64,000 nt of DNA, from positions 1-64,000 of the forward strand of contig JBFWSA010000002.1 in assembly GCA_050248615.1 (NCBI GenBank), read 5' to 3'. Below the pieces are notes generated by a model. The model saw only the letters and a list, made by a program, of their open reading frames with translations, was not told the DNA's origin and ran no database searches. Below, one piece after another: positions 58,734 to 62,459 of this stretch. Within the stretch, counting starts at the first letter, position 1. Each line of letters starts with the position of its first letter. This stretch comes from Simkaniaceae bacterium (GTDB lineage Bacteria > Chlamydiota > Chlamydiia > Chlamydiales > Simkaniaceae). The position numbers and the translations under genes are program-made.

Positions 58734-61700
58734 CTAAGGAAGAGCCTTCGTAATAGTGGGGATCATGCTTGAAGGAATGGGATCCTTTCCTCCATTTGCC
58801 ACCTCTGCAGCTTCAATATAGTTAAGGGTTGTTGCTGCATTACCACTATCATGCCAAGGATAGGCTTTTGAGTTTTTTTGATTCTCTCCTTGATACCAAT
58901 CGAGTATTCCTTTCGCAAAGTTTGGGCTATAACGGGCAACCATTGGTAATATCGTTGGAATAATCGAGGAAATTCCTGCTCGTTTGGTAGGGTCAGCCCA
59001 GTCCTGCTCTTGAAACATCGGACTGTTTTTTAACTCACTCCAAGTGGGTGGAGTGGTTGTAAAAACCCCTGGAAACAGGGTATCTACTACCTTTTGGGCT
59101 GTGAGTGGATCGATAGCAGTTGGCAAAGTATTGATTCCCTGCATACATGCAGCACCTAAGGGAAGAAGGGCCGGATCTTTTCCTGGGCCCCACCAAGTGG
59201 CTGAAGTTTTTTTTCTGACAAAGGAGATGTTTGAAAGAGCAATCTCTTTGCCATATTCTTGCATCTCTGCACTTGCGAGGGGATCTTGATAAATCGAACC
59301 TGCATAAGCAGGGTCTCTAAACATTTGTGAAGATCTCACAGTTTCTATGGCATGATTCAACTGATAATCGCGATCTGCTGTATAAGAGTTTTTTAATGTA
59401 GGGTCAGTGGCTCCAGTAGCTTGCTGGCTAAACCACTGCGCAGCTCCTTGATTAAAGTTCAGAGCTTCCGCTGTAGATTCTAGGTCTTGCCCATCAGCGG
59501 TGGGAAGATTCCATCCATGGCTCTTAAATTCATGTGTATCGTTATCTAATTGACTTCCCGCTGTAAACATACCAGATGCTGAGTTCCCCGGGCGAACATC
59601 AACTTCATTGATGAGGGCATCAATGAGGCGTGAGCGATACTGAGGCTGGTCAATAGATCCTTTTGTCTGTATATCCCATACTTCTGGGGTTGTTGCTTGA
59701 GGAGTTTCAAAAAAACTGGGATCAACTTGCCGGATATTAGCTGCCGCTTGAATCACATATCCATTCGTAAATTGAATATCTTGTCCAAGATTATTATAAA
59801 AGTTCCCTGCACCATCAACTGCTCCAAATTTTGAAACAAGAAGGTGGTGCTTTGGATCCCATCCATAGGATTCCAACATATCAGACATTTTTGTTTCAGC
59901 AGCTTGGATAAATATCTGCTCTGTTTGCTGCAATTGACTCAGTTGCTCAGGAGAAAGCATTAATTTCCCAGAAGAAGCTAGATCTAAAAGTTTCTGGGCT
60001 TCACGTGCTGTATAGGAGTCGGTTTGCATCTCTTGAGCAAAAGCATAATCATTGATTTCCATAATGGGGTTTGGTTTTAGTGTGGGATTTGTGAGAGCTC
60101 CAACCATTGCATTTAACTGATCTGTAGAGGCCTGATCCATCCAGTCTACAGCTGCTGTTGGCCGATTATTGCTATCACATAGACCATAGTTATTGCTATC
60201 TTTGTACTGTATGGTCGCAGAATAGGTCCCATCTTTATTTTGCGTGGGAGCAAGTGCAACGATCCGTTCGACCCCATTCATCGTTTGATAATAGGGCATT
60301 CCATTTTCATAGTCTTGGAGTGTTGGTTTTTGGGGAGAATCCATATTCTTATAATTATTATAGAGCTGTCCGATATAGGCTTGATTGGAAGCTCCAGGGA
60401 AATCCATAGAATAAAAAGTATAGGTTGTGGAATACGTTGCTTGACCATTTTGCATTGCGGTCTTTCCAACATCACTACTAAGTGGAATGTATCGCACTCC
60501 TTGATCTATTCCTAGGCCAAAAGTTTGAGCTAAAGGATCTTTTCCTCCCGCTTTCAACTGCGTCACAGTTGCAGCTGATATTTTAGCAACAACAGTGACT
60601 TCCTTTCCTTGACCCATTGTGCCTACTAATTCATTTACATTTCCTTCTGGGACCTTAACAGTTGCAGAGTAATAGTTAAGAGGGGTAGGTAGTTGGGGAT
60701 CCAGTTTCCGTGCATCACTTTCTGTGATGTATTGCCCCTGTTGCGCAGGAGGAATTTGCCCATCAGGAACGATGATTTTCGTTGTAGAGCTTTTTAAAGT
60801 AAATGCCTGAGGGGTGTCTGTGTAAATGCTATAATATTCTAAGGCGCCATTGGCATCTGTGACTGCTACACGAAAAAGCTGTCCCTTGGGTGTTGTTCCT
60901 GATGTTGTACTCCCTTCAGAAACCCACTGACCTCCTGCATTCGCATAAACCGTGACTCCTACAATTGTTCCGCAATGAAAGTTGACGGTTGGGGCGGTGT
61001 TTTCTGTAAAAACGGGCATGTAGGGAGAGTTTTTAACAATCGGGATCGTTACACTACTTCCATCCCCATTTTTCTGCTGGTAAACAACAGAGTTTTGCCC
61101 TGTTGGAGTCAGTGTTCCGAGGGGATTCATGGGCCCATTCGTCCCAAGAGGAGAAGAGGCTCCTCCAATTTCTGTATCTATTGTGCTTCCCGCTTGATAG
61201 GATAGAGTACGTCCGTCCCAATTCACCTTAGGATCATCCCTATCGATTTGAAAAGCTTCTGAATTCTCAAAAACAATCCCAGTCCCCGTATTTCCTATGT
61301 TATAGATCCCTTGATTGCCTTTTGGATTTAAGTTTCCTTGGGGAATAGAAGCTAAAACATACACTGTATCTCCAACCTCTAAGGTTCCATTTTCTAAAAA
61401 ATGGTTATCATTTTCCCCTTTCTGTTCATGTTTGTCTTGATGTTCAATATTGGATCCATAGGTAGGGAACAGTTCAGGATACCGCTTATAATAAGCTTCG
61501 ATACTATCGATGGACATTGAAGGGGGGGTAAAAGAAGGAGGTGTTCCTTTAGGTGTCACTGTAATGGCTAAACTATGGGCAGTGGCATTTCCTAGAATTT
61601 GCCACCATGAAGACAACGGGGCATTTTCAGAGCTAGGGATCGAAGGCTGAAATGTTAATGCACCCTTATCTTGAGGAAATAGAGAAATGGGTGTGGAGTA

Positions 61701-62459
61701 GTTGATGCTCTTATAGGGATCCATCTGATCCATTCCCGGATTGTCAATAGAGACAGGATTTAGGGGATCATGGTCTTGGATGAGCTTAGGTAACTGGCTG
61801 ATCTGCTGCAAATTTGGAGGGGGAAACCCAAGCTTACTGGCAAATTCTTGTAAAAAGACCTGGGCTTCGGTAGGACTTAAGCTAGAAACTTCATTTCTAA
61901 ACTCTGTTTTTTGTTCTTCTGACATAATGGTGTCAGGAAGGGGATCAACTTGGTGTGAAATGCCAACCAAAAGAGCTTGAATACTCGTGGGAATATTTTC
62001 TTGCATTCCTTTTAGTGCTGCGCCAAAACCTGATTGGATTCCTCCAACATCCCCTCGCGTAACACCACCTGAAGAAACCCCGAAATGCCAATGGTAATCT
62101 ATCCCTTCTTTTTGCAATTGCCCCGCAGTTAAATATTGCTGTAAAGCGGCATCAAACCCCTGGCGATCTGCGTCCATATTTTCTTGAAATGCATTAATCC
62201 CATTTTCAATATTTGTCTTTAAATTTGCCGTATTTTCTCCCCCTGTTTGTTTATCCCACTCCTGATAATCACTATAAATAGTATCAGCAAGAGCAGAGGG
62301 TTCCACGGTAGATACTTTTCCACTAGGGATTGTTTCAAAGGCACCTAAGAGCTCATTCATGAACGTATAAAGTGCAACAGATCGGTTAGATTGACTGACG
62401 TTTGATGCGTGATTTTCTGTAAATAAAGAAGGTCGGTTTTCCTGAATAGAATAGCCCAT
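58734..62459 (-). CDS. Large protein with divergent GH81 endo-beta-1,3-glucanase-like C-terminal region
   Basis: VKNSPYM, QDIQFTNGYVIQAAA, SHGW..PTADGQDLESTAEALN, TWWG and QGINTLP occur in the order of the GH81 motifs. Confidence 0.65.
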   Translation of the reverse strand: MGYSIQENRPSLFTENHASNVSQSNRSVALYTFMNELLGAFETIPSGKVSTVEPSALADTIYSDYQEWDKQTGGENTANLKTNIENGINAFQENMDADRQGFDAALQQYLTAGQLQKEGIDYHWHFGVSSGGVTRGDVGGIQSGFGAALKGMQENIPTSIQALLVGISHQVDPLPDTIMSEEQKTEFRNEVSSLSPTEAQVFLQEFASKLGFPPPNLQQISQLPKLIQDHDPLNPVSIDNPGMDQMDPYKSINYSTPISLFPQDKGALTFQPSIPSSENAPLSSWWQILGNATAHSLAITVTPKGTPPSFTPPSMSIDSIEAYYKRYPELFPTYGSNIEHQDKHEQKGENDNHFLENGTLEVGDTVYVLASIPQGNLNPKGNQGIYNIGNTGTGIVFENSEAFQIDRDDPKVNWDGRTLSYQAGSTIDTEIGGASSPLGTNGPMNPLGTLTPTGQNSVVYQQKNGDGSSVTIPIVKNSPYMPVFTENTAPTVNFHCGTIVGVTVYANAGGQWVSEGSTTSGTTPKGQLFRVAVTDANGALEYYSIYTDTPQAFTLKSSTTKIIVPDGQIPPAQQGQYITESDARKLDPQLPTPLNYYSATVKVPEGNVNELVGTMGQGKEVTVVAKISAATVTQLKAGGKDPLAQTFGLGIDQGVRYIPLSSDVGKTAMQNGQATYSTTYTFYSMDFPGASNQAYIGQLYNNYKNMDSPQKPTLQDYENGMPYYQTMNGVERIVALAPTQNKDGTYSATIQYKDSNNYGLCDSNNRPTAAVDWMDQASTDQLNAMVGALTNPTLKPNPIMEINDYAFAQEMQTDSYTAREAQKLLDLASSGKLMLSPEQLSQLQQTEQIFIQAAETKMSDMLESYGWDPKHHLLVSKFGAVDGAGNFYNNLGQDIQFTNGYVIQAAANIRQVDPSFFETPQATTPEVWDIQTKGSIDQPQYRSRLIDALINEVDVRPGNSASGMFTAGSQLDNDTHEFKSHGWNLPTADGQDLESTAEALNFNQGAAQWFSQQATGATDPTLKNSYTADRDYQLNHAIETVRSSQMFRDPAYAGSIYQDPLASAEMQEYGKEIALSNISFVRKKTSATWWGPGKDPALLPLGAACMQGINTLPTAIDPLTAQKVVDTLFPGVFTTTPPTWSELKNSPMFQEQDWADPTKRAGISSIIPTILPMVARYSPNFAKGILDWYQGENQKNSKAYPWHDSGNAATTLNYIEAAEVANGGKDPIPSSMIPTITKALP

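Follow-up and report, generated by a model that had tools for sequence, protein, structure and literature searches.

The divergent GH81 ORF and its host genome

We analyzed a 64,000-nucleotide stretch of a Simkaniaceae genome (GenBank assembly GCA_050248615.1, contig JBFWSA010000002.1, positions 1 to 64,000; hereafter the window), which carries on its reverse strand a long open reading frame (ORF), P0001. From its predicted, complete three-part fold, P0001 is a very divergent member of glycoside hydrolase family GH81, rather than a proven glucanase (features in Table 1). The genome has the chlamydial traits of a topoisomerase I fused to SWIB and of CdsD, and the close homologs of P0001 that have names derive from Simkaniaceae and Chlamydiia metagenome-assembled genomes.

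P0001 begins with ATG, with no in-frame start further upstream, and is single copy, as a genome-wide search of the 2.04 Mb genome detected no paralog. Among the sequencing runs listed, the stretch is present in 20 of 24 DNA runs from 15 studies, mostly of landfill, freshwater and wastewater, and in none of the RNA runs. In X6, an independent run and one of four compared, a single contig spans the entire ORF and all three gaps fall outside it; because of this contig, we do not regard the ORF as an assembly chimera. Gene GC content (0.43) is like that of the genome and unlike that of the adjacent low-GC block (0.37-0.40). A promoter and terminator scan at P0001 found nothing above chance.

P0001 is predicted to adopt the GH81 fold

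An initial annotation of the window had assigned P0001 to GH81 on the basis of three C-terminal motifs, and these motifs are present in GH81 order, aligned column for column with the canonical ones. The Pfam GH81C model scored P0001 at 21 bits (E 2.3e-4), below its cut-off of 25.6, and scored the same domain at 26 bits in the genome search, in which in-frame neighbours were included; all six close homologs (47-51% identity to P0001) were over the cut-off. In the profile comparison that the annotation had proposed, a profile of seven close sequences aligned with the canonical GH81 barrel (hhalign, profile-profile, P 96.5, E 9e-10). The corresponding alignment over the beta region was weak (E 0.0015, 142 columns), and residues 40-275 gave no profile-profile match to canonical GH81. 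PDB sequence searches with P0001 alone (no matches) and with the seven-row profile (unrelated matches only, E above 0.2) missed GH81 because P0001 is too divergent; a 52-row profile found the family. No NCBIfam family matched P0001, no carbohydrate-binding module (CBM) was detected in it, and alignment A4, used as a profile query, recovered nothing beyond rows already known.

An AlphaFold2 model of residues 224-1241 (predicted local distance difference test score, pLDDT, 83.6; predicted template modeling score, pTM, 0.88) contains an (alpha/alpha)6 barrel and N-terminal beta domains, and Foldseek matched it to solved GH81 enzymes (E 7e-20, TM 0.73 of target). Structure superposition, also proposed at the outset, fitted the model to GH81 with Z 25.5 and a root mean square deviation of 3.2 over 665 of 716 residues, the next family reaching Z 12.8. 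The superposition covers model positions 9-1008, that is, protein residues 232-1231. The annotation had described the N-terminal several hundred residues as unrelated; by superposition and hhalign, only residues 1-231 lie outside GH81, and the region of about 232-770 corresponds to the GH81 beta domains. In the Atlas, all ten of the 10 best matches with a family were in the GH81 family or clan. Compared with RmLam81A (4K3A), BhGH81 (5T4A) and CtLam81A (6FOP), the predicted model is alike over the whole fold (Z 23-25.5, 642-665 residues aligned) but shares only 13-17% identity and has about 350 extra residues within the fold. P0001 also differs from these enzymes in having a 230-residue helical extension in place of a signal peptide.

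The catalytic acids are retained in a rebuilt pocket

Asp894, Glu994 and Glu998 occupy the columns of the canonical Asp and Glu-x3-Glu, in register with those of the three solved enzymes. As the annotation had stated, the acids are kept: they are invariant in 7/7 rows, in 8/8 rows and in 2/2 further loci of the clade formed by P0001 and its close homologs (the target clade), whose members are about 50% identical overall. Glu994 corresponds to the residue mutated in the CtLam81A E515A structure, and mutation of the first Glu in barley GBP1 is reported to abolish laminarin hydrolysis (bioRxiv 10.1101/2023.04.12.536646). On alignment, Asp894 is predicted to be the acid and Glu994 the base. GBP1, a plant glucan-binding GH81 protein, likewise stands at a host-symbiont interface, where it is encoded by the host, whereas P0001 is encoded by the intracellular bacterium.

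The aromatic platform (Tyr805, Phe887 and Trp1090) is retained and shared with the solved enzymes. None of the residues typical of the GH81 pocket (Lys, His-His, His, Tyr and Asn) is present. Instead, six pocket positions, which we take to be sugar-binding positions of GH81, are changed: Lys to Gln809, His-His to Ile/Leu-Gln (the loss of His-His had been recognized in the annotation and extends to 8/8 clade rows), His to Thr/Ser898, Tyr to Asn899, Gly to Tyr888 and Asn to Asp992. Because non-canonical residues are fixed at these positions, the substrate may have shifted, and beta-1,3-glucan appears less secure as the substrate of P0001 than the annotation assumed. Since the predicted fold and the acids are those of GH81 and the canonical pocket is not, we file P0001 as a divergent variant within this known family.

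The most conserved stretch of the protein is residues 965-1001, in which 27/37 positions are invariant, compared with 148/461 in the barrel and 2/44 in the tip. Between the orthologs of genomes G045 and G032, the ratio of nonsynonymous to synonymous substitution rates (dN/dS) is 0.08-0.21 by region (barrel, 0.089; beta region, 0.128; residues 45-231, 0.078). The pocket thus reads as rebuilt and constrained rather than decaying. For enzymology, the clade would be a natural GH81 that has retained its acids while its pocket was rebuilt.

The N-terminal extension and a possible route of secretion

In the N-terminal model, residues 1-22 are disordered and residues 54-210 form a confident helical bundle, which is common to the target clade at 28-30% identity; P0003, P0004, P0006, G045 and G032 carry about three helical repeats of 175 aa ahead of it. 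A fold search with this domain gave no Atlas match and no Foldseek match at E 0.001 (best Z 6.1); missing matches of this kind do not establish a new fold. No paralog of the domain was found in the genome.

The S/N/Q-rich tip of the initial annotation holds for P0001, with an S/N/Q(/T) content in the top 0.3-0.8% of 1050 ORFs in the genome, and does not extend to the homologs. The absence of a Sec signal was borne out, in that a crude hydropathy test found no Sec-type uncharged hydrophobic stretch at the N-terminus of P0001. By the same test, 39/41 other 5'-complete chlamydial GH81 ORFs have a signal-like N-terminus and 5/8 extended homolog loci have intermediate values, so 'signal-less' is there a judgment by eye. 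P0001 thus combines a polar, disordered N-terminus with the lack of a Sec signal. The genome encodes a type III secretion system (T3SS), including an SctV/FlhA-family gene (FHIPEP, E 1e-221), CdsD and a T3SS ATPase. Among 1049 ORFs, the best match to the first 30-45 residues is an ORF without a Pfam hit that by eye is translocator-like and that shares a contig with CdsD and the T3SS ATPase. The start M-x(0-3)-S-[VI]-Q occurs in 6/1499 ORFs (1.6 expected), among them two Inc-like and one translocator-like ORF. Given the missing Sec signal, the T3SS genes, the polar tip and the resemblance of the N-terminus to Inc-like and translocator-like ORFs, type III secretion is plausible, and we consider it likely from these sequence features.

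Contig C37, on which CdsD and the T3SS ATPase lie, also carries, at L130:838-4369, four co-oriented ORFs without Pfam hits, two of which resemble a translocator pair by hydrophobic pattern.

Distribution and phylogeny of chlamydial GH81 genes

Pfam PF17652 matched 51 of 401 chlamydial genomes (about 13%), 50 of them over the cut-off, and none of 14 controls. We recovered 58 GH81 ORFs from chlamydial genomes, most with signal-like N-termini. GH3 was present in 5/5 genomes. The loci L058-L107 comprise many chlamydial GH81 subfamilies with signal-like N-termini, five rows of which lack the catalytic Asp. Genome G134 has three GH81 copies, two in tandem; the GH81 match in G034 has an internal stop, and the GH81 gene of G354 is split over two ORFs. 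We found no literature on chlamydial GH81 within our coverage, which did not extend to supplements, such as CAZyme tables, or subscription papers.

The tree (59 rows, 301 columns) is unrooted and includes only 11 non-chlamydial or unnamed outside rows; 14 redundant rows and six partial or broken loci were left out. The target clade has support of 100/100 and a long stem (1.32 changes per column), and its sister (100/99) comprises P0009, P0010, G142, G239 and G363. The target belongs to the 37 rows on one side of a branch with 98/95 support, none of which is a named non-chlamydial protein. The signal-bearing chlamydial GH81 proteins differ from P0001 in that most keep the first His of His-His. 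Grouping the signal-less lineage of G225 with the target and sister clades was not rejected (p-AU 0.26), so an independent origin of signal loss in G225 is not supported over one origin of the signal-less lineages.

The annotation had proposed a phylogeny to find the donor of the gene; because the tree is unrooted and the outside sampling thin, we name none. P0011 is assigned to Verrucomicrobia by one source, and the genome search puts its genome in the order of the window. A viral structure library gave two full-length matches to the model, one named Pithovirus GH81, which we do not take as donor evidence.

NusA-like modules in the sister clade

The sister clade resembles P0001 in its helical extensions and in lacking, by eye, a typical Sec signal; P0009 aligned by hhalign with P 99.8 over 476 columns. 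It differs in keeping His-His, in a C-terminal helical tail (the helical repeats of P0009 are mostly C-terminal) and in two clear NusA-like inserts. Pfam NusA_N matched P0009 (E 6e-8) and P0010 (E 4e-4) at places inside the beta region of GH81. Two modules of this kind, each about 45 residues long, occur in the sister clade, and G225 has a single one elsewhere, just before the catalytic Asp; overall, NusA N-terminal-like modules occupy two to three different GH81 sites. A profile of seven inserts had NusA as its two best PDB matches (E 0.037 and 0.082) and matched chlamydial NusA with E 3e-5. Searched over 400 genomes, it returned only these GH81 genes, besides two matches at E about 0.01. The inserts present an unexplained reuse of a transcription-factor piece in a glycosidase.

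For P0001, a hidden Markov model (HMM) search found no NusA-like module, and a NusA-only HMM and hhalign found none either. The model at residues 545-604 runs strand, short strand, helix, strand, which together with the window match in Table 1 is suggestive only of a residual module.

Of the 59 rows of the chlamydial set, 14 deviate in at least one of the three acid columns, though a one-column shift in the alignment may explain six of these. The first Glu is lost in 3/5 sister rows (G142, G239 and G363, at L016, L015 and L014), whose barrel dN/dS is 0.09-0.10. These proteins, conserved despite the lost catalytic Glu, are candidate non-catalytic glucan binders. The initial annotation had offered such a binder as its alternative for P0001; the idea fits the sister clade and is less likely for the target clade, given the invariant acids and the most conserved loop.

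Table 1. Features of P0001 and loci with NusA-like modules (window coordinates unless a locus is named).
Feature	Residues	Position	Strand	Basis or remark
Whole ORF P0001, divergent GH81 with N-terminal extension	1241 aa	58734..62459	(-)	One X6 contig without gap inside ORF
S/N/Q-rich tip, variable and modeled with low confidence; putative type III secretion signal	1-44	62328..62459	(-)	2/44 invariant, pLDDT 30-60
Clade-specific helical bundle and short beta hairpin	45-231	61767..62327	(-)	Model; no clear fold match
GH81 N-terminal beta-sandwich and linker domains, with insertions	232-770	60150..61766	(-)	Profile, model, superposition
Insert at the place of the sister clade's first NusA-like module	about 296-330	61470..61574	(-)	Positional; no sequence match
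Possible decayed NusA-like module	about 558-600	60660..60788	(-)	Window 545-604, E 0.002, best of 57
Predicted (alpha/alpha)6 catalytic barrel	771-1231	58767..60149	(-)	Pfam, hhalign, model
Catalytic Asp motif (Asp894), His-His replaced	893-906	59742..59783	(-)	Alignment
Glu994-x3-Glu998 motif, in most conserved window	988-1001	59457..59498	(-)	Alignment, conservation
Trp platform and GIN motif	1088-1113	59121..59198	(-)	Alignment, profile
Loci with NusA-like modules		L014:805-4749, L015:5943-9884, L016:2609-5974, L017:1469-4543		Also P0009, P0010

A proposed exported hydrolase and its alternatives

The explanation we consider best, and hold tentatively, is that P0001 is an exported, active GH81-type hydrolase that acts on host beta-1,3-glucan or a close variant and gets there by type III secretion. 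The T3SS would deliver the protein into the inclusion or the host cytosol, with the polar tip perhaps acting as the secretion signal and the helical domain perhaps serving in targeting or in chaperone binding. There, it would cut its substrate by an inverting mechanism and release glucose oligomers from the storage or wall glucan of a protist host. The lineage probably originated from a Sec-exported chlamydial GH81 in which the signal peptide was swapped for the helical extension and the pocket was rebuilt. The proposed logic, an exported carbohydrate enzyme reaching host carbon, is that of the type III secreted chlamydial GlgA, GlgX, GlgP and MalQ, although those enzymes belong to unrelated families acting on alpha-glucans and their secretion has been tested, whereas that of P0001 is inferred. 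Type III secretion is reported for glycogen enzymes of C. trachomatis, GlgA, GlgX and others (PMC6717882), and preliminary type III secretion data are given for GlgE and TreS-Mak (PMC7935935).

Several observations weigh against this explanation. The non-canonical residues at the six pocket positions are fixed in 8/8 clade rows. The gene is patchy, being found, besides this genome, in 3/34 other genomes of the family and not in the single genome of the same genus that was searched (G292, 90% complete). A GH16 partner was not found in any of five genomes. Regarding secretion, the tips of the homologs are acidic, so that S/N/Q richness is not conserved; the likeness to the translocator-like ORF was matched in 5-15 of 100 shuffles and did not reach significance in a local alignment; and the M-x(0-3)-S-[VI]-Q pattern was picked post hoc, after the data had been seen. 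The input alignment of the structure predictor contained canonical GH81 rows, which favours a GH81 fold; the sequence-only tests and the Atlas result are free of that bias. Finally, among the within-species variants listed, 12/16 are non-synonymous, none of them at the three acids. These variants and the score below the Pfam cut-off are what an assembly chimera or a decaying gene might show, a reading that we find hardly credible. It is already largely refuted by the gap-free contig from an independent run and by the identical domain order in six homologs, and the relatives show low dN/dS.

The protein might instead not be a type III substrate at all, being cytoplasmic and released by lysis, exported by another route or held at the surface, and acting at entry or exit. 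The secretion evidence is compositional, the helical repeats stand at the N-terminus of some homologs and, in P0009, mostly at the C-terminus, an arrangement that could suit a stalk or anchor, and homologs reach 1800-2360 aa. We nevertheless judge this unlikely: to our knowledge, there is no beta-1,3-glucan in the chlamydial cytoplasm, Pfam and NCBIfam scans gave no autotransporter or outer-membrane family match, and effectors usually combine a variable tip with a conserved core, as P0001 does. An equally serious, and similarly improbable, alternative keeps the export and the active inverting hydrolase and changes the glycan, to a glucan with branches or mixed linkages or to some other glycan of the host wall or surface. 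It would account for the six pocket positions being changed and then fixed, for the long stem of the clade and for the rebuilt loop being the most conserved window. The retained aromatic platform speaks against it, as does the description of characterized GH81 enzymes as specific for beta-1,3-glucan (bioRxiv 10.1101/2023.04.12.536646; PMC8949617). The loss of His-His and Lys, and the acid-column changes elsewhere among chlamydial rows, including sister rows under purifying selection, would fit a non-catalytic protein that keeps hold of host glucan uncut, whether as a binder, a decoy or a scaffold. With all three acids invariant across the target clade, we regard this as improbable to a greater degree than either of the preceding two.

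If P0001 is a type III secreted GH81, it would widen chlamydial manipulation of host carbohydrates from glycogen to beta-glucan. The frequency of GH81 among the sampled chlamydial genomes points to hosts that store beta-glucan or have it in their walls; the hosts of most metagenomic chlamydiae are not known, and GH81 makes the idea testable by a simple assay. A broader scenario, which we think rather doubtful as a whole, is that, within an overlooked GH81 radiation of environmental chlamydiae, one branch gave up Sec export and became an effector injected into the host, with helical repeats in place of the signal peptide, a pocket rebuilt for a new host glycan and repeated surface modules derived from NusA. 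Such a branch would parallel chlamydial glycogen piracy on the side of beta-glucan, and could mark, at the genome level, hosts whose stores or walls are made of beta-1,3-glucan.

Neighboring genes and other features of the window

The low-GC block next to P0001 (window 47981-58524) holds genes for glycosyltransferases and asparagine synthase-like, epimerase and radical SAM/SPASM proteins, as well as a fusion of WG repeats with an O-methyltransferase (53731-55410), and looks to have been acquired as an island. An operon link between P0001 and these glycosylation genes was considered and rejected, as the neighbors differ in every lineage and the GC content of P0001 matches the genome; the block is probably unrelated to P0001. 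By eye, the neighbors of the GH81 gene across lineages include secA, lptB, uvrB, DNA polymerase delta-like and methyltransferase genes. Runs X6 and X7 contain a diverged variant of 57850-58524, and an AT-rich 40-base intergenic stretch (58681-58723) is matched by several unrelated contigs, likely owing to low complexity.

Two tandem DXD-type glycosyltransferases (30842-33030, reverse strand) show a short, weak overlap with TcdA/TcdB Pfam models over 38 profile positions; they probably belong to a surface-glycan cluster as ordinary sugar transferases. On the forward strand, seven paralogous ORFs of 346-1082 aa lie in tandem at 11609-23776, with no family above cut-off; they share a two-lobed hydrophobic N-terminal region that is Inc-like by eye, and the 1082-aa member is internally repeated.

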